A DNA stretch of 64,000 nucleotides, taken from the NCBI GenBank assembly GCA_964499705.1, contig CAZCME010000011.1:1-64000 (forward strand), given 5' to 3'. A program made the position numbers and the translations under genes. The stretch comes from an uncultured bacterium. Its GTDB lineage: Bacteria > UBA8481. The number at the start of each line of letters is the position of its first letter. Positions within the stretch are counted from its first letter, which is position 1. Below are positions 9,568-26,669 of the stretch, one piece after another. A model generated the notes under the pieces. The model was not told the DNA's origin. It saw nothing but the letters and a program-made list of their open reading frames with translations, and did no database searches.

Positions 9568-11193
9568 ATGGCAAAGCAATTACTGTTTCACGAGGATTCG
9601 CGCGCGAAGTTGAAGAGCGGCCTCGACAAGCTGGCGGCGGCCGTGGCCGCGACGCTCGGACCGCGGGGACGCCTTGTGGTCCTCGATAAGAAGTTCGGCT
9701 CGCCGACCGTCACGAAGGACGGCGTATCCGTCGCGAAGGAAATCGAGCTGGAAGATCCGTTCGAGAACCTGGGCGCGGAGATGGTGAAGGAAGTCGCCTC
9801 CAAGACGAACGACGTCGCGGGCGACGGCACGACGACGGCGACCGTTCTGGCGCAGGCGATCGTGAATCTCGGATTCCGCGCGGTAGCGGCGGGTTCCAAC
9901 CCGATGGCCGTCAAGCGCGGCATCGAGAAGGCGGTCGAGAAGATCGTCGAGCAGCTGAAGAACCAGTCGACGAAGGTGAAAGGTCGCGAGGAAATTTCCA
10001 ACGTCGCGTCGATCTCCGCCAACGGCGACAAGGAAATCGGCAAGCTCATCGCGGACGCAATGGAGAAAGTCGGCAAGGACGGCGTCATCACGGTCGAAGA
10101 GGCGAAATCGCTCGAGACCACGATGGAGCTCGTCGAAGGCATGCAGTTCGACAAGGGTTACATCTCGCCCTACTTCATCACCGACGCTCACCGGATGGAA
10201 GCCGTCCTCGAGGACGCTTTCATTCTCATCCACGACAAGAAAATCTCCGCGATGAAGGACATCCTTCCGACGCTGGAGAAGGTCGCGCAGAACGGCAAGC
10301 CGATCCTCATCATCTCCGAGGAAGTCGAAGGCGAAGCCCTCGCAACCCTGGTGGTCAATCACATCAGGAAGACGCTCGTCTGCGTCGCGGTGAAGGCCCC
10401 CGGATTCGGCGACCGCAGGAAGGCGATGCTCGAAGATATCGCCACGTTGACCGGCGGCAAGGTTATCACGGAAGAGCTCGGCATGAAGATGGACCAGGTT
10501 CAACTCTCGGATCTCGGACGCGCGAAGCGCGTCGTCATCGGCAAGGAAGAGACGACGATCGTGGAAGGCGCCGGGAAGAAGTCGGACATCCAGGGCCGCA
10601 TCTCCCAGATCAAGCTCCAGATCGACGAGACCACCTCGGATTACGACCGTGAAAAGCTCCAGGAACGCCTCGCGAAGTTGGCGGGCGGCGTCGCCGTCAT
10701 CAATGTCGGCGCGGCCACGGAGACGGAAATGAAGGAAAAGAAGCACCGCGTCGAGGACGCGCTATCCGCGACACGAGCTGCCGTTGAAGAAGGCATCGTG
10801 GTCGGAGGCGGAGTTGCGCTTCTTCGCGCCGCGAAGTCGCTCGACGAGCTGAAGCTGAAGAACGAAGACGAGATTGTCGGCGTCGATATCATCCGGAAGG
10901 CCGTTTCACAGCCGCTCCGGTGGATCTGCAACAACGCCGGCGTCGAAGGTTCGGTCGTCGTGGAGAAGGTTCTCGCGGGCAAGGGCAGCTTCGGCTTCAA
11001 CGCCGAGACGCTCGAGTACGAGGATCTCTCGGATGCCGGCATCATCGACCCGACAAAGGTGACGCGTTCCGCTCTGCAGAACGCGGCCTCGATCGCGGCC
11101 ATGATGTTGACGACGGAGTGCATCGTCACGGACATACCGGAGAAAGACAAGGGACCCGCCATGCCGCCGCACGGTGGTGGCGGAGACTACTAA
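9568..11193 (+). CDS. groEL: Chaperonin GroEL
   Basis: [35 protein letters not shown]. Confidence 0.99.
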
Positions 11194-11217
11194 GCTCTAC
11201 GCTGTAATGTAAGGCCC

Positions 11218-11250
11218 ACGCCGGGTTCCGCAAGGAGCCCGGCGTTTTTT
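11218..11250 (+). terminator. Intrinsic terminator after groEL
   Basis: ACGCCGGGTTCC-GCAA-GGAGCCCGGCGT stem-loop followed by T-tract. Confidence 0.88.
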
Positions 11251-17514: not shown

Positions 17515-19740
17515 TCAGTGCGGCCCCGCCCATAAGTGCGGCCACCGATGCGCGGCATTTCGATCCGTGTCTCCTCCCGGCGCGCGCCGGCGCGCACTCC
17601 ACCCTTTTCGCCCTGCGGCGGCGAGGGCGGGCAGGGCGATGAGCGATCCGAACAGCGCGAAGATTGTCCCCGCGACGACGGCCACGCCGAAACGCTGAGT
17701 CGGAGGGAAATTCGAGAGGAGAAAGATCGCGAAGCCGCAGCTGACCGCCACGCTCGTGACGGCGGCCGGTTTCCAGAGGACGTTCAGGGATTCCGACCAC
17801 GCCTCGCCCGGAAACCTGCCCTTCAAGCGCAGCCGGCGCGCCATCGTCGTGAGCTGGAGCATGTCGGCAATGCCCATGGCGACCGCGATGTTGACGGCGG
17901 GTGCGGAGACGATGTCCACCGGCATGTTGAGGAGACCAATGCCTCCGAAAACAAGCGTCGCGGGAATGCAAAGCGTGACGACCATCGCGAGTATCCAGCG
18001 CAACGAGCGCGCGACAGCAGCGGCGACCAGGATGAAGCAACCGACCAGTTGAGCGAATCCGGTGAAGAGACTTTCGCGAATTAATCGGGAGAGCCGGCCC
18101 TGGAGAAAATACAGGCCGCCCGCCTGCTCGACCTTGAAACCCTGCCTGACCACAATGGCTTTAAGTTGCTCGATTTCGGTCAACCTGTGATCACGCCTCA
18201 CGTTTTCCTTCATGCGAAGAAAGAATAGCGCGGTGCGCCGATCCTGCGTCAGGAAGGCATTCGTGATCCTTCCGTATTTCGCGCCTTCCATTTTTTCAAG
18301 CAGGTATCGGTAGTTGAAGATGAACGCAAAAGGCGTCTTCTTCGCTTCGCTCATCAACGGAGCCGCTGACAGGACGGTTCCGACCGAAGGGTGCTTTTCG
18401 AGAGTGTTCTGCAGAGACCAGAGCTTGTCATAAGCCGGCTCGCTGTCGAACCGCATGCCTCCGGCGTCGCGAACCGTCAGCAGCAGCGGGCTGCTGCCGC
18501 CGTTGCGGTCGATATGCACAAGGCCTCTATGCAAGGCGCTTGTTTCGGAAAAGTAGGCCAGGAGACTCGGATCGGCATCGAGCCGACGCGCCGCGGGCAC
18601 CAGCGCAATGGCCGCTGCCAGGATAAGAAGGAGCGGAAGGACATGCGGCATCGCGAAGAACCGGGTCATGACGAACCATGACGATTGCCTCTGATCGGAA
18701 TTCCGTGAATGCGTAACGAGATGGAGAAAGTGCGGAAAGATCAGGTAGGCGCTGACGAAGGAGACGACAGCGCCGATGCCGCCGGAAATGCCGAGCTCCC
18801 GCAGCGGTCTCGCCTGCACCAGGAGAAGGCTCGCGAATCCCGCCATCGTCGTGACCATGCCCCACCACGAGGCGCTCCTCGTCATCGCCACGGTCGCCCG
18901 GACTGCCTCCCGTCGCGTGGTGGCGCTCACGTTCCGGATGTTGAAACCCAGGTAGACCGTATGCTGCAGCGTCATGATGAAGACGATCGTGAGGAGATTG
19001 GCCGTCAGGATTCCGATGGGAATTTGAAAGGCGTGAAGAATCAGAAGCGTCACGGAGCAGGCGAAAAAGCAGGACGACATGGTGCCGATCATCATCGTCA
19101 TCGATCGGAATGTAACGAGGACGATGATGCCGAAGACGACGACGGCCGCCGAGCTGAAGGCGGTCATATCCTCCTTCAGATTCCGGCGGATCAGTTCGAC
19201 GACATAGGGCACGCCCGACAGGGCCAGCTCGAAGGATCTGCCCTGGTGCTCCTCCATGACGCGCTCCAGGTCCTCGATGACGCGCGCGCGCGCATCTCCG
19301 CCGGAGGACATATCCCGGGCCAGCAGGACGACAAGAAGCGTGGACCGTCCGTCCTCACCCACGACCAGCCGCCGCCAGAAAGGGCCGGAGAAGGCCGCCG
19401 AGACGCTTCGAGGGCCGCGCGTCACGCTCTGCACGCTCTTCACGCCTTTCACATCCGCCAGAGCGCGCGTGAGCCGACCCACCTTGGCGAAATAGGCTAC
19501 GGCATTGAGATTGCCCGTCGCACTGACGATCACCTGCGGATCGCTCTCGAATGTCTCCGCGATCTTCGCGTCCATCTGGAAGGCAGGATCGTCTCCGGCG
19601 AAGAAGAAATTCTCATCCACGGCGGGGGCCAGCTCGACGAAGACTCCCACGAGCACCATGAGCATCAATGTGAGGCTTATGAGGAATGCGCGAAGGATTC
19701 GCAACCGGAGTCCGGAGCGATTCGATGTCGGATCATCCAT
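17515..19740 (-). CDS. MMPL/RND family transporter
   Basis: Two repeats of TM + soluble loop + 5 TM; TTMAGFASL, GFAIFLLSNFPPTQRFG; start uncertain (19740 or 19788). Confidence 0.85.
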   Translation of the reverse strand: MDDPTSNRSGLRLRILRAFLISLTLMLMVLVGVFVELAPAVDENFFFAGDDPAFQMDAKIAETFESDPQVIVSATGNLNAVAYFAKVGRLTRALADVKGVKSVQSVTRGPRSVSAAFSGPFWRRLVVGEDGRSTLLVVLLARDMSSGGDARARVIEDLERVMEEHQGRSFELALSGVPYVVELIRRNLKEDMTAFSSAAVVVFGIIVLVTFRSMTMMIGTMSSCFFACSVTLLILHAFQIPIGILTANLLTIVFIMTLQHTVYLGFNIRNVSATTRREAVRATVAMTRSASWWGMVTTMAGFASLLLVQARPLRELGISGGIGAVVSFVSAYLIFPHFLHLVTHSRNSDQRQSSWFVMTRFFAMPHVLPLLLILAAAIALVPAARRLDADPSLLAYFSETSALHRGLVHIDRNGGSSPLLLTVRDAGGMRFDSEPAYDKLWSLQNTLEKHPSVGTVLSAAPLMSEAKKTPFAFIFNYRYLLEKMEGAKYGRITNAFLTQDRRTALFFLRMKENVRRDHRLTEIEQLKAIVVRQGFKVEQAGGLYFLQGRLSRLIRESLFTGFAQLVGCFILVAAAVARSLRWILAMVVTLCIPATLVFGGIGLLNMPVDIVSAPAVNIAVAMGIADMLQLTTMARRLRLKGRFPGEAWSESLNVLWKPAAVTSVAVSCGFAIFLLSNFPPTQRFGVAVVAGTIFALFGSLIALPALAAAGRKGWSARRRAPGGDTDRNAAHRWPHLWAGPH

Positions 19741-19945
19741 GTTCAGAAACGCCTCCCATCCTTCGCCTGCTCCTCTCTTCCACCGCATATCTCATGCCGC
19801 GGGTAATGTCCTTTCGCGACACACAGAAAGCGAAAACGCGCATGTGGAGCAAAAAGGAAATTAAACTGTGCGCACGAAACTCTCGCCCCGATGCGTTTTC
19901 ATGCTCTCAGGGCGGGAGGACTTTTCAGAATACTGCAGTTGCAAT

Positions 19946-19962
19946 CGGGCACGTGCCTTGCT
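19946..19962 (+). promoter_or_regulatory. sigma54 (-24/-12) promoter
   Basis: CGGGCACGTGCCTTGCT: GG(19948-49)-N10-GC(19960-61) with GGCACG and TTGC consensus blocks. Confidence 0.7.
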
Positions 19963-19972
19963 TTTACGCTTG

Positions 19973-20169
19973 GCGATGCGGATCGACGATCGGAGTCGGA
20001 TTCGCATTCGCGGATTCATGATCACCCGATGCTGATGCTCAGTAAACGGGGGGACAAGAGGGGCTTATCGGCGACGGAAAACTCCCGCCATGCCCTCACA
20101 TGGGGAGCGGACCGTGCCGGTAACAATAAAGGCCCACGCCGGGTTCCTTGGGGAGCCCGGCGTATTTTT
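19973..20169 (+). ncRNA. Candidate structured small RNA (~197 nt)
   Basis: Starts at predicted sigma54 +1, three hairpins, AACAATAAA single-stranded tract, intrinsic terminator; no credible ORF. Confidence 0.6.
20136..20169 (+). terminator. Intrinsic terminator nearly identical to groEL terminator
   Basis: ACGCCGGGTTCC-TTGG-GGAGCCCGGCGT-ATTTTT. Confidence 0.8.
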
Positions 20170-20357
20170 CATCCGCATCCTTTTTTCCTGGAAGCGTTTC
20201 GCGTATGCTGCGAAGCGGACATGAGCTCACCACATGCAGGCAGGCGGACACTTCGTTGAAATTTCCCGATCGGGAAGATCTCCGGGCGACAGGCCGACAT
20301 GAAGCGTCAGACTCCTCCAGGCGAGCATGCTCTTCTCAGCTCGTCGAACGCGGGAGT

Positions 20358-21404
20358 GTGACCCGGCTCATCCTGCCGGTGCTGGTCACTCTCATTCTCG
20401 CACTGACACCTCCGGCGCACGCGGAGTTCGTGCGGGGAATCTACACGTTCAGCGCCTCGACCTACGACACGATCGTGTCCCTCGGCTTCAACATGGTCGT
20501 CAGCGGGCCCGCATGGGAAACGGAACTGGTCAAAGCGAGGCAACTCGGGTTGAAGGTGATCCCTTCCTGGTACGGGGATGACACGACGGCATATGATCTG
20601 ATGCGATCCCTGGATACGGATCCGATGATCATGGCGTGGTATCCCTTCGATGAACCGGACATCTACCATTATTCCAAGGAGGTTGTTCGCGATAAGATCG
20701 CGATCCTGCGCCGGAACAATCTCAAGAAACCCGTCTACCTGACCGTCTTCTCACCGCTGCACTACTCAACCTACCTACCCAGCGCTGATATATTCGGAAT
20801 CACGCCCTATCCGATCGGATCGAATCCCGAACGGATCAACATGGATATCGTCGGAAGGTACACCCGCCGCGCGAGAATTCTCGCCCCGGACAAGCCGCTC
20901 CTTGTCTGCATACCGGCCTTTTTCCAGCGACCATGGCAATACAGATCGCCCGATCCGGAGGAACTTCACAACATCGTGTACCAGGCTCTGACGGGCTATC
21001 CCGACGGTGTCATCTTTTTCATCTGGCAGGTCCAGAGCATGGACGGCGAGATCTGGAATCTCGACCAGCACCCCGATCTCCTGGAGGAAATGGGAGTCAT
21101 AAACAGCGAGCTGATCGAACTGGATGAAGTGCTGACGAAAGGCGAGCCGGTGCCGGACGCCACCGTATCGCCCCACACGGTCTACCAGCGCGTCTCCAGC
21201 CACAGGAACGCTCAATACTGGATCATGGCCAATCCGTACGCCGACCCCGTCACGGCGACTCTCGCACTTCCAGGAAAGGTCACCCATGCGCGGATCATGT
21301 TCGGGCGAAGAGCGGAGTTGGGTGACGCCCCGGACAGCCGAACGATCGCGGTGAATCTCGGCGCCCTGGGCTACGCGACCGTACGAATCGAAGCCGGCCG
21401 GTAG
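20358..21404 (+). CDS. Secreted glycoside hydrolase-like TIM-barrel protein
   Basis: Signal peptide ..PPAHA; LGFNMV, AWYPFDEPD, ADIFGITPYPI; GTG start inferred. Confidence 0.6.
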   Translation: MTRLILPVLVTLILALTPPAHAEFVRGIYTFSASTYDTIVSLGFNMVVSGPAWETELVKARQLGLKVIPSWYGDDTTAYDLMRSLDTDPMIMAWYPFDEPDIYHYSKEVVRDKIAILRRNNLKKPVYLTVFSPLHYSTYLPSADIFGITPYPIGSNPERINMDIVGRYTRRARILAPDKPLLVCIPAFFQRPWQYRSPDPEELHNIVYQALTGYPDGVIFFIWQVQSMDGEIWNLDQHPDLLEEMGVINSELIELDEVLTKGEPVPDATVSPHTVYQRVSSHRNAQYWIMANPYADPVTATLALPGKVTHARIMFGRRAELGDAPDSRTIAVNLGALGYATVRIEAGR

Positions 21405-21500: not shown

Positions 21501-21585
21501 TGCCCGGGGCGGGATTCGAACCCGCACCTGCCTTTCGGCAAAGAGGATTTTAAGTCCTCCGCGTATGCCATTTCGCCACCCGGGC
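21501..21585 (-). tRNA. tRNA-Leu(UAA)
   Basis: GCCCGGG acceptor stem, GAGGA-CTTAAAA-TCCTC anticodon arm, long variable arm, GGTTCGAATCC T-arm; CCA not encoded. Confidence 0.95.
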
Positions 21586-24170: not shown

Positions 24171-26669
24171 CTACTCGTACAGTGACGCGAGAATCCTTCC
24201 GATCTTGCCTTCCAATTCTCTCTTCATCCGCGTTGCTTCGGGTATCGTGATGCGTTCCTCGATCTGGGGAGGATACGTGACGGATGTCAGGAAAGGGGGA
24301 TAGTACTTGTTGTTCTTTCGCGCGGCCTTGATGAGCTGCGCGACGAGCGAACAGGCGGAAGCCATGGCCTGGCGGTCGATCATGCGCGTGCCGAATCGCA
24401 CCGCCACGAAACCGCCATCCACAAGCTTGAAGCAGAGCTCGGACGCGGGATCGACCGTGAGATTCGCGGCGGGCAACTGAGCGAAGTGCCAGAGATCCTT
24501 GCCGGCGGGCCTGCGCTCGATCCGGTAGCATTCCACCGGAAGGCCCCGGGAGAAGCGGCTGATGTAGGACGCGTTCGACGCGAGGCTGTAGCGCGCATCC
24601 TCCTTCGCGCATGTCCACGCATCGCATTTACCCTGGTCGTCCACGAGGAGAAATCCCGCGCGCACTGTCCCGGATTTGTCGACGACGTCGAACTCGAAGA
24701 CCGCCTCGGCGCGGGGCCGGGCGCGCGTCATGATTTCGGAGATGAGCTTGCCGCATTCATCGGTCGGAACGCGCGCGAACTGGAATAACCCGCCGCGCCG
24801 ACCGACTTCCAGCAGCAGGTTCTCAGGCGAGTTCATGTCGAACGGAGCACATTCGCGGATGAGCACGTATCGCTGCTGATCCTTCAGGACGAACATCCGC
24901 GTTTCCTTCGGCGCGAGGGCCCCCGCAAGGACCGCGATCGTTTCCGCCGAATCAGGACCGGTCGCCGCATCGAGAAGAAATTCATACCCTGATTTCGCCG
25001 GAGGAACGGACAGGATCCACGCGATCATCGACGACAGGCCGCTCTCGCCCGAGAAGACGCGATACTCCACGACGTCCCAGGTCGTCCTCGTCATCACGGT
25101 CAACTGGCGCGTCGCCAGGTCCTTCGCATTGGACTGCTCGAAGACGATGAAGTGCCGATCCGGCGCGGAGGGGCGCTCCAGGGAATCCGGTGACGCTGAG
25201 AAATCGAACAGCCTTGAGAGCGCGTCGCAGATCTCGGGCACTTTTCTCGGGAAGAGATCGGTCGGCCAGCCCCTGATCTCGGTCTTGCCCTTCACAAGGA
25301 GCCGGTTCTTCAGGGCGAAGGCGATCAACGGCACGGCGGCGGGCGCGGTCTTGATGCCCTTCACGAGCGCGAAGATCGGGCGGCCGACGAAGCGCTGCAA
25401 TGAAAGCGTCCATTCCTGCGTGTCGGGATTCTGCACCATCGAGATCGACGGCTCTCCGCGCGAAGGAACGTCGGCGAATGTCAGGTTCTCGATCACCGGC
25501 CCGCTGCCTCCTCGCAGGACGATCCTGCGGGTCAGCAGGCGGAGCTTGGCGGGATTGATGCCGAGGCCTCCGTAGCTGCTGATCTCCCGGAGCGACGCCT
25601 GGAGATACTTCGCGATGAGCCCGGAAAACCGGATGCGCGTCTCGAACGGCCATTCGAAATATTGATCGAGCTTCTCGACCTCGATCGGCTTGCCGATCGC
25701 CTGGAAGCGGGCCGCGATCAGCCGATCGCGATTGCGACGGTGACGGTCCTGGGATGTTTCTTCGGCGACCATCTTCAAATAGAGAACCGTCTTCAGGAAT
25801 TCATGATCCTCCTCGGCCTTGATGGACTTGAAATATTCCCACAGGTAATCCAGCAGCAGCATGTACGAATCCGGAAGCATTCCGCTTTCCACGCGGTCCG
25901 CGTACACCTCCGCGGGTAGCTTGTCGTTCGGACGCGCGGCCAAGCGCCTGAGGAGCGCGACCTTCAGGGCGGACTTGAAGGGCTTCTGCAGGGCTTTCTC
26001 CAGCTGCGTCAGGCAGGCGGACAGGTACTGTTCCGTGGTGAGATGCGGGATCTTCCCGAAGTCGATCGCGAGCGGCTCCGTGCTGCCCCACGCGAGCGGT
26101 TCGAGTCCGGCGGCGTACACATAGGTCCGGAGAAATTCATCCTTCAGGAGCGCTCCGAATTCGCCCGCGTTCTCCTCGTCGTAGCAGAACGTCGCCTTCT
26201 GGATCTCGCCGAGGTCATGGATGTAGAAATGAATTTCGAGGCCGGCATACTGCATCGCCCAGTTCTCGATCGCGCGGAGCTTCGTTCCGAGCTGCTCGCG
26301 CTCCAGCGTGGAGATCGCCTTGGCGGGGTGAATGAGCCAGAAATCGACGTCGGAGGCGGACGTGAAGCAGACGCTGCCGACCGAACCCATCGCGTACAGG
26401 CCGAGGAAGGTATTGCGGCGAGGAGGAACAACCGTGCCACGGAGCTCCGGGAAAAGTTCCGCCGCCGCCGGCATCGTCTCCGGGAGAAAGAACGCGCGGA
26501 TGAATCCGTGCGGTTCCAGCCCGTCCTTGCCTCCGGGCAGGGATGGAATGCTGTAGTGCAGCAGGGCGGGCAGCGCACAAAATGCTTTCCACTTCTGAGT
26601 GGTCAGGGATTCCTGGAGCGAAGCGAGCTTTTTGCGGTTGTGCGCGGCGAAGATATCGCGGTTCGGCAT
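24171..26669 (-). CDS. cyaA: Class I adenylate cyclase
   Basis: YAMGSVGSVCFTSASDVDFW, LLKDEFLRT, KPFKSALK, LYLK correspond to class I cyclase conserved blocks; start inferred. Confidence 0.8.
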   Translation of the reverse strand: MPNRDIFAAHNRKKLASLQESLTTQKWKAFCALPALLHYSIPSLPGGKDGLEPHGFIRAFFLPETMPAAAELFPELRGTVVPPRRNTFLGLYAMGSVGSVCFTSASDVDFWLIHPAKAISTLEREQLGTKLRAIENWAMQYAGLEIHFYIHDLGEIQKATFCYDEENAGEFGALLKDEFLRTYVYAAGLEPLAWGSTEPLAIDFGKIPHLTTEQYLSACLTQLEKALQKPFKSALKVALLRRLAARPNDKLPAEVYADRVESGMLPDSYMLLLDYLWEYFKSIKAEEDHEFLKTVLYLKMVAEETSQDRHRRNRDRLIAARFQAIGKPIEVEKLDQYFEWPFETRIRFSGLIAKYLQASLREISSYGGLGINPAKLRLLTRRIVLRGGSGPVIENLTFADVPSRGEPSISMVQNPDTQEWTLSLQRFVGRPIFALVKGIKTAPAAVPLIAFALKNRLLVKGKTEIRGWPTDLFPRKVPEICDALSRLFDFSASPDSLERPSAPDRHFIVFEQSNAKDLATRQLTVMTRTTWDVVEYRVFSGESGLSSMIAWILSVPPAKSGYEFLLDAATGPDSAETIAVLAGALAPKETRMFVLKDQQRYVLIRECAPFDMNSPENLLLEVGRRGGLFQFARVPTDECGKLISEIMTRARPRAEAVFEFDVVDKSGTVRAGFLLVDDQGKCDAWTCAKEDARYSLASNASYISRFSRGLPVECYRIERRPAGKDLWHFAQLPAANLTVDPASELCFKLVDGGFVAVRFGTRMIDRQAMASACSLVAQLIKAARKNNKYYPPFLTSVTYPPQIEERITIPEATRMKRELEGKIGRILASLYE

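Follow-up and report, generated by a model that had tools for sequence, protein, structure and literature searches.

The window analysed here, positions 1-64000 of a contig (C11) in the draft genome of an uncultured bacterium of the lineage UBA8481, carries in one of its intergenic gaps a compact unit of ~195 nt (19973 to ~20168) that we tentatively read as the gene of a stand-alone, trans-acting small RNA (sRNA), dependent on sigma-54 and an activator and probably assisted by Hfq. Of the readings considered, this is the one that we would choose, at somewhat short of an even chance. On a single strand and in the expected order lie a -24/-12 promoter, a start point predicted at the first base of a hairpin, three structured domains, an unpaired A-rich tract and an intrinsic terminator, and the host (4.67 Mb, 61% G+C, 45 contigs, 96% complete) encodes RpoN, activators of sigma-54 and Hfq. 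From these observations we infer that the candidate is transcribed, answers to an activator, binds Hfq and has targets in trans. Much of this had been proposed earlier from the letters alone (the original prediction), whose promoter, +1, first two hairpins, A-rich tract, terminator and lack of coding sequence stood up to our analysis, while its third hairpin and its gap length did not and its GGA trinucleotides proved no more numerous than by chance. Its interpretation as a novel sigma-54-dependent sRNA is supported in part: by the novelty with respect to Rfam, the noncoding character, the RpoN and activators of the host and the order of elements. The hint at GGA- or CrcZ-type motifs fails statistically.

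The promoter (all features are listed in the table) matches the consensus TGGCAC-N5-TTGCW at 15 of 16 positions. The sole mismatch is at position 1, which is the least conserved of the -24/-12 consensus and is variable also among the 24 other intergenic sites of this genome. With C19961 taken as -12, the predicted +1 is G19973, and this is indeed, as first noticed by eye, the base with which hairpin 1 opens in the minimum free energy (MFE) fold. Within the window the promoter motif alone does not exceed chance: two matches were found where 0.76 is expected, and 20 of 100 shuffled sequences had at least two. The other match, TGGCACGGTTGTTCCT (26424-26439, minus strand), is without the -12 GC, lies inside a gene call, and is probably a chance occurrence.

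The whole genome was scanned for the motif, with one mismatch allowed outside the invariant GG and GC, and intergenic DNA was defined by a crude gene caller based on open reading frames (ORFs) and codon usage (3109 calls, covering 86% of the genome). The motif occurs 47 times, and 25 of these occurrences are in the 14% of the DNA that is intergenic, 23 of them facing a co-oriented next gene. Since 24 motifs lie fully inside intergenic DNA, against 7.8 ± 3.1 in dinucleotide shuffles of it (maximum 17, n = 30), roughly two thirds of the intergenic matches should be real promoters. The host has the machinery to use them: an rpoN gene (C6:159481-159951, 213 bits) and 21 strong matches to the enhancer-binding domain Sigma54_activat (PF00158), each with an E-value of 1e-37 or better.

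Upstream of the candidate promoter lies a two-block element that offers a lead to a possible activator site. The same two blocks recur, here as a contiguous 20-mer, at C6:101574-101593, where a second sigma-54 motif in intergenic DNA follows 106-126 nt downstream; by a rough estimate the chance of such a double recurrence is ~0.004. That second motif (C6:101453-101468, minus strand) is followed by an ORF of 306 aa, the N-terminus of which weakly resembles Flp/Fap pilins (23.2 bits, where the cut-off is 32.2), and then by TPR proteins; on the other side, at a distance of 11 nt, is the start of a small divergent gene. One 14-mer that recurs upstream of C12:19487 was discarded as an activator site, being the start-codon region of a divergent gene.

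The 200 nt from G19973 were folded (MFE, centroid and ensemble), and the folding energy was compared with that of 200 dinucleotide shuffles. The predicted transcript reaches -93.9 kcal/mol, against -72.7 ± 4.6 in the shuffles (z -4.65), none of which was as stable. Without the terminator, the core (19973-20135) still gives z -3.35 in the sense direction, again with none of 200 shuffles as stable, whereas its antisense strand gives z -1.50; the 204 nt upstream and the 187 nt downstream of the terminator give z -1.28 and +0.35. It is thus only in the sense direction, and only from promoter to terminator, that folding is in excess. A separate script put the core at z -2.85, a value to which 2 of 70 random intergenic windows were equally extreme.

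Hairpin 1 presents a 7-nt loop, GAUCGGA (19988-19994), unpaired with probability 1.0. The helices originally described for hairpin 2 both appear in the MFE fold, CCCG/CGGG pairing 20025-20028 with 20047-20050 and UGCUGA/UCAGUA pairing 20030-20035 with 20039-20044; on its basal pairs the MFE and centroid folds disagree. The third hairpin fared otherwise: GAGGGGC...GCCCUC is a purely local fold of -16.4 kcal/mol, and including it in a structure of the full length costs at least 10 kcal/mol relative to the MFE, which has in its place the three-part stem of domain 3. The A-rich tract noted before the terminator is present and remains unpaired; counted from A20122, the sequence is AAC-AAU-AAA, a run resembling (ARN)3. 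The fold is multi-hairpin, unlike the rod with a central bubble that is characteristic of 6S RNA; the canonical 6S RNA of this host is encoded elsewhere (C25:58805-58983, minus strand; RF00013, 67.1 bits).

The unit ends in an intrinsic terminator as had been claimed, with 12 pairs, a 4-nt loop and a U5 tail within the ATTTTTCATC that follows the stem. The stem contributes -24 kcal/mol, and its ensemble pairing probabilities run from 0.90 at the outermost pair to 1.00. When the 3' half was withheld from the fold, the 5' half found only a weak 5-bp partner as a potential antiterminator. This terminator has a near-twin in the window, behind groEL (9568-11193), where positions 11211-11250 are 88% identical over 40 nt: the two share both stem arms and the preceding 7 nt, and the loops differ (GCAA behind groEL, UUGG here). 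The genome has no third copy, and the likeness of the two points to a duplication, which may have supplied a young gene with an existing part or may have left a meaningless remnant.

Since the gap lies between diverging genes, neither flanking gene needs this terminator. Terminators in such places are rare: a simple genome-wide scan, in which nested variants were counted singly, yielded 283 records, and only 14 of them, at 6 distinct loci, fall into the 448 divergent gaps. (The candidate's own terminator was binned as coding in that scan, as the caller had opened the downstream ORF too early, at TTG 20148.) A same-strand terminator within 600 nt downstream was found for 3 of the 25 intergenic sigma-54 sites; at the other two a gene call follows 42-46 nt after the motif, and the candidate is the only one without an ORF. 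By a rough joint rate, from ~1% of gaps with a motif and ~1.5% of divergent gaps with a terminator, well under one case would be expected over the 448 gaps. Each element alone is only moderately significant, but their combination is unlikely to be accidental.

The longest frame across the unit, an ORF of 122 aa at 19891-20259, starts upstream of the promoter and runs across the terminator. Its codon score is -21.3, whereas the downstream gene, read from its GTG, scores +90.6 and the two gene calls on either side score +171.1 and +75.4. It belongs to no Pfam family and had no homologue among the 67-214-aa proteins of a collection of 5.8 billion proteins, where five candidates shared words with it and none scored. 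The judgement that the gap holds no credible coding sequence therefore survives its check on this ORF. So does the judgement that no known RNA family is involved: at gathering scores Rfam finds only tRNA in the whole window, and at E ≤ 10 the region 19700-20400 gives only mir-1825, by chance (16.2 bits against a cut-off of 70). For the candidate there is thus no Rfam match to the models of GlmY/GlmZ, Qrr, NrsZ, CsrB/RsmY/RsmZ or CrcZ, nor to those of riboswitches or leaders.

Table. Features of the candidate sRNA locus (positions in the window)
Feature	Position	Strand	Remarks
MMPL/HAE3-type RND transporter gene	ORF 17515-19788, likely start 19743	minus	upstream neighbour of the gap
Candidate upstream activator/operator element	19841-19876		CATGTGGAGC at 19841-19850 and near-palindrome CTGTGCGCACG at 19866-19876; 71-106 nt upstream of the promoter motif
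Sigma-54-type -24/-12 promoter	19947-19962	plus	GGGCACG-TGCC-TTGCT (GGGCACGTGCCTTGCT); 15/16 match to TGGCAC-N5-TTGCW
Hairpin 1	19973-20011	plus	15 pairs, two bulges; in MFE and centroid folds
GGA linker	20012-20014	plus	single-stranded between hairpins 1 and 2; unpaired probability 0.92-0.95
Hairpin 2	20015-20060	plus	apical part 20025-20050 well defined; basal pairs weak
Domain 3	20061-20135	plus	long-range three-part stem; internal loops 20078-20081 and 20108-20111; apical loop CCCUCA 20093-20098
A-rich tract	20123-20130	plus	ACAAUAAA; unpaired in MFE and ensemble
Intrinsic terminator	20136-20170	plus	stem-loop 20136-20163; 12-bp stem (9 G-C), UUGG loop, then AUUUUUC
Secreted-protein gene, 348 aa	likely GTG start 20358, end 21404	plus	downstream neighbour of the gap
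tRNA gene	21501-21585	minus	3' of the downstream gene; Rfam gathering-score match

In the mechanism that we propose, an enhancer-binding protein would bind upstream, possibly at the two-block element, and switch on RNA polymerase-sigma54 at the -24/-12 promoter, so that transcription would begin at about G19973. The fold of the RNA would begin with a 5' hairpin that protects it, continue with hairpin 2 and the long three-part stem, and close with the terminator, acting constitutively. A 5' end locked in a helix, as predicted here, is common in stable sRNAs. The RNA would then act in trans, its exposed loops and linker pairing with mRNAs while Hfq, most likely, binds it at the unpaired A-rich tract and at the U-tail of the 3' end. 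An unpaired ARN-type run and a U-tail after the terminator are the usual pair of Hfq contact sites, and the A-rich tract is presumably the site for the distal face. The sequence features of an Hfq-type sRNA are all found, namely the terminator with U5, the unpaired ACAAUAAA and a host Hfq gene (C31:10626-10811). Dependence on Hfq is known for the Qrr sRNAs, which are driven by sigma-54.

The unit is set in a gap of ~615 bp (19743-20357), slightly longer than the ~570 bp first given, between divergent genes. The protein encoded downstream has, by eye, an N-terminal segment like a signal peptide, and matched no Pfam or NCBIfam family. Its orthologues were found in three of four relatives, at 70, 54 and 45% identity, and in all three the gene sits directly behind a malic-enzyme-like or leuS-like gene, without a gap (DNA read by eye, no search). 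For the MMPL gene, the four nearest genomes yielded no orthologue at E ≤ 1e-20. The base composition of the locus is ordinary.

Between the terminator and the downstream gene lies a perfect 14-nt palindrome, TTCCCGATCGGGAA (20263-20276), present once in the genome and preceded by a TTGAAA hexamer ~85 nt upstream of the gene's start. It suggests that the downstream gene has a regulated promoter of its own, for which the palindrome would probably be the operator. A short upstream ORF of 20 codons (20299-20361) has its stop overlapping the GTG at 20358, within GTGTGA, and the two may be translationally coupled.

Several results weigh against a functional sRNA. A BLAST search with 19940-20175 in 61 genomes found the host only, and one fortuitous match of 23 nt. 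The single candidate sequence and its MFE fold were made into a covariance model, which detected no paralogue in the host genome and nothing in four relatives (three of the same family, one of the same order; 86-96% complete); in the phylum-level group, represented in the searched collection by five genomes including the host, the host stands alone. Plasmids and phages gave no match to the candidate either. Three further searches ended in the same way: metagenome contigs queried with the downstream protein (87 pattern matches, none confirmed); metagenome contigs queried with a pattern of the promoter and 5' end (one match, unrelated by BLAST, lying in another context over what looks by eye like the start of a reading frame); and genome contigs queried with a pattern of hairpin 1 (two chance matches, in a Marvinbryantia metagenome-assembled genome and a Streptomyces genome). 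The collection of homologues that had been suggested for a covariation analysis thus came out empty in the collections searched, which leaves the structure unsupported by covariation and gives no indication that the gene is under selection. A search for RNA sequencing runs with 19850-20250 found none, a result that has no bearing on expression. The locus itself is, judging by gene content and order, a lineage-specific, rearranged or accessory spot, because the MMPL gene has no orthologue and the downstream gene is placed elsewhere in the relatives. About one third of the intergenic motif matches are expected by chance; the U-tract is broken and no more than five U long; and the likeness to the groEL terminator means that the candidate terminator could be a relic of a duplication. 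Target prediction did not help: RNAduplex, run with the whole sRNA against gene starts, returned long non-specific duplexes, with the two neighbouring genes at shuffle level (P 0.38 and 0.74). By eye, 20079-20086 is perfectly complementary over 8 nt to the Shine-Dalgarno region of the downstream gene (20351-20358), as would happen about 1 time in 10 by chance; this segment is paired inside domain 3. What we have is a credible, well-delimited and unconserved sRNA candidate.

Such results invite the view that the unit does nothing, being a chance sigma-54-like motif joined to a relic copy of the groEL terminator in a rearranged gap, with any RNA from it amounting to noise or to a very young, unselected transcript. 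In its favour, ~7.8 of the 24 intergenic motifs are expected by chance, the terminator and the 7 nt before it duplicate those of groEL, none of the collections searched holds a homologue, the locus is not syntenic with the relatives, and folding as far in excess of shuffles as that of the core was seen in 2 of 70 intergenic windows taken at random. The promoter, the +1 at the start of a helix, the bounded and sense-specific structure and the terminator are, however, four independent features in the right order on one strand, and already for motif and terminator the rough product of rates over the divergent gaps predicts well under one case; on balance we find this view unlikely, if the strongest of the alternatives. 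Slightly less probable, and likewise unlikely, is that the unit is a 5' leader or attenuator: the sigma-54 promoter would serve the gene at GTG 20358, the structured 165 nt and the terminator would be overridden by a protein, a ligand or translation of a short ORF, and the short RNA would be a by-product. The promoter is co-oriented with that gene and 396 nt upstream of its start; the gene needs a promoter of its own, since its upstream neighbour diverges, and a sigma-70 consensus scan of 19600-20500 gave none; and compared with the relatives the gene has moved here. Yet, protein-mediated antitermination apart, no antiterminator fold is apparent, only the weak 5-bp alternative to a terminator of -24 kcal/mol, and the 187 nt between terminator and gene are unstructured and contain the unique palindrome, which is typical of an operator for a separate promoter. 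Rfam has no riboswitch or leader match for the unit and no homologues were found; 1.5 kb upstream of each of the three orthologous genes in the relatives were scanned on the strand of the gene, and no sigma-54 motif (at most two mismatches) was there. Among the 23 other intergenic sigma-54 sites that are co-oriented, the next gene call comes within ~70 nt for 12, at 71-240 nt for 6 and at 437-1720 nt for 5. The lack of a credible antiterminator and a palindrome that suits a separate downstream promoter are among our reasons for favouring a stand-alone, trans-acting sRNA over a leader.

A different function for the same RNA would be the titration of a protein, either of CsrA, as by CsrB/RsmY/RsmZ, with GGA motifs at 19992 (loop of hairpin 1), 20012 (linker) and 20109 (internal loop), or of Hfq by the A-rich tract, as by CrcZ. 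The host does encode CsrA, three of the nine GGA, including one in a hairpin loop, have an unpaired probability of 0.9 or more, and CGGA is mildly enriched (6 against 2.4 ± 1.4, P 0.018). But the "several" GGA trinucleotides of the original prediction, although present, are not in excess (9 against 6.9 ± 1.8 in shuffles, P 0.18; 9 or more occur in 7% of 8334 intergenic windows), and only 3-4 of the sites are exposed. The csrA gene (84 aa) sits in a flagellar block (C5:224753-227908) together with flgL-like, fliW and flagellin genes, the FliW match being below NCBIfam cut-offs, and we take this CsrA to be of the type that is antagonised by the protein FliW. Sponges of the CrcZ/CrcY type have several A-rich AANAANAA motifs, whereas here there is one such tract, and Rfam matches the unit to none of CsrB, RsmY, RsmZ and CrcZ; so the earlier hint at motifs of either type falls away, and titration as a whole appears improbable. 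Its specific version, a sigma-54-controlled decoy that sequesters a FliW-partner-type CsrA by the exposed GGA of the hairpin 1 loop, linker and internal loop, is a shade more improbable again. To our knowledge no dedicated sponge sRNA is known for CsrA of this type; if true, such a decoy would add to the FliW-CsrA-flagellin circuit an RNA antagonist under the control of an enhancer-binding protein, and an evolutionarily young gene assembled from a copy of the groEL terminator is compatible with it. Least probable of all, and very hard to credit, is a very small protein, encoded either by a 19-codon frame from ATG 19976 or by the 76 codons of ORF 19891-20259 that follow ATG 20027. Both frames are open, but ATG 19976 lacks a Shine-Dalgarno sequence and is sequestered within the 15-bp stem of hairpin 1, and the long frame, besides crossing the terminator and having neither a Pfam family nor a homologue of 67-214 aa, has a negative codon score from 20027 (-13.2) as well as over its whole length.

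A stand-alone sRNA of the kind we favour would follow a well-known principle, and as far as its sequence features go the architecture is that of known sigma-54-dependent sRNAs, although by Rfam the candidate belongs to none of the GlmY/GlmZ, Qrr and NrsZ families. GlmY/GlmZ of Enterobacteriaceae (PMC3045617) are stand-alone genes of ~150-200 nt with a sigma-54 promoter and an upstream-bound activator, a multi-hairpin RNA and an intrinsic terminator; size, promoter, hairpins and terminator have counterparts here, and an upstream activator is proposed. The candidate, from an unrelated phylum, has no sequence or structure match to their Rfam models, and no array of three activator sites, site for IHF or link to a glmS-type target is known for it. 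NrsZ of Pseudomonas aeruginosa (PMC4253122) is an RpoN-dependent intergenic sRNA built from stem-loop modules; it is induced by the activator NtrC and acts on an mRNA in trans by a loop motif, and its three modules are similar and processed, where the candidate has three dissimilar domains and no Rfam match. The Qrr sRNAs of Vibrio (PMC10162802, PMC3352281) are trans-acting sRNAs with a terminator that depend on sigma-54 and an activator, but they measure ~100 nt and form families of paralogues, unlike the single-copy candidate of ~195 nt, which has no paralogue and no Rfam match. The likeness is looser to CJnc230 (FlmE) of Campylobacter jejuni, an RpoN-dependent sRNA of a flagellated bacterium and a processing product of the flgE mRNA 3' end (PMC11187230); the candidate has a promoter of its own and lies between diverging genes unrelated to flagella.

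If real, the unit would give an uncultured and barely sampled lineage a first concrete candidate for an sRNA, and it would show that the combination of sigma-54, activator and sRNA, known from Proteobacteria and Campylobacterota, is used in the lineage of this host too. That its terminator has a twin behind groEL gives a hint of how existing parts can make up a new sRNA gene. The reading also makes a precise prediction for the transcript, with its 5' end at 19973 ± 2 and its 3' end at ~20165-20170.

Six other terminator-like hairpins were found in divergent gaps of this genome, at C8:2043-2068, C10:136274-136299, C19:20949-20984, C23:68332-68350, C33:20390-20416 and C1:463940-463965; they may mark further small RNAs or leaders.

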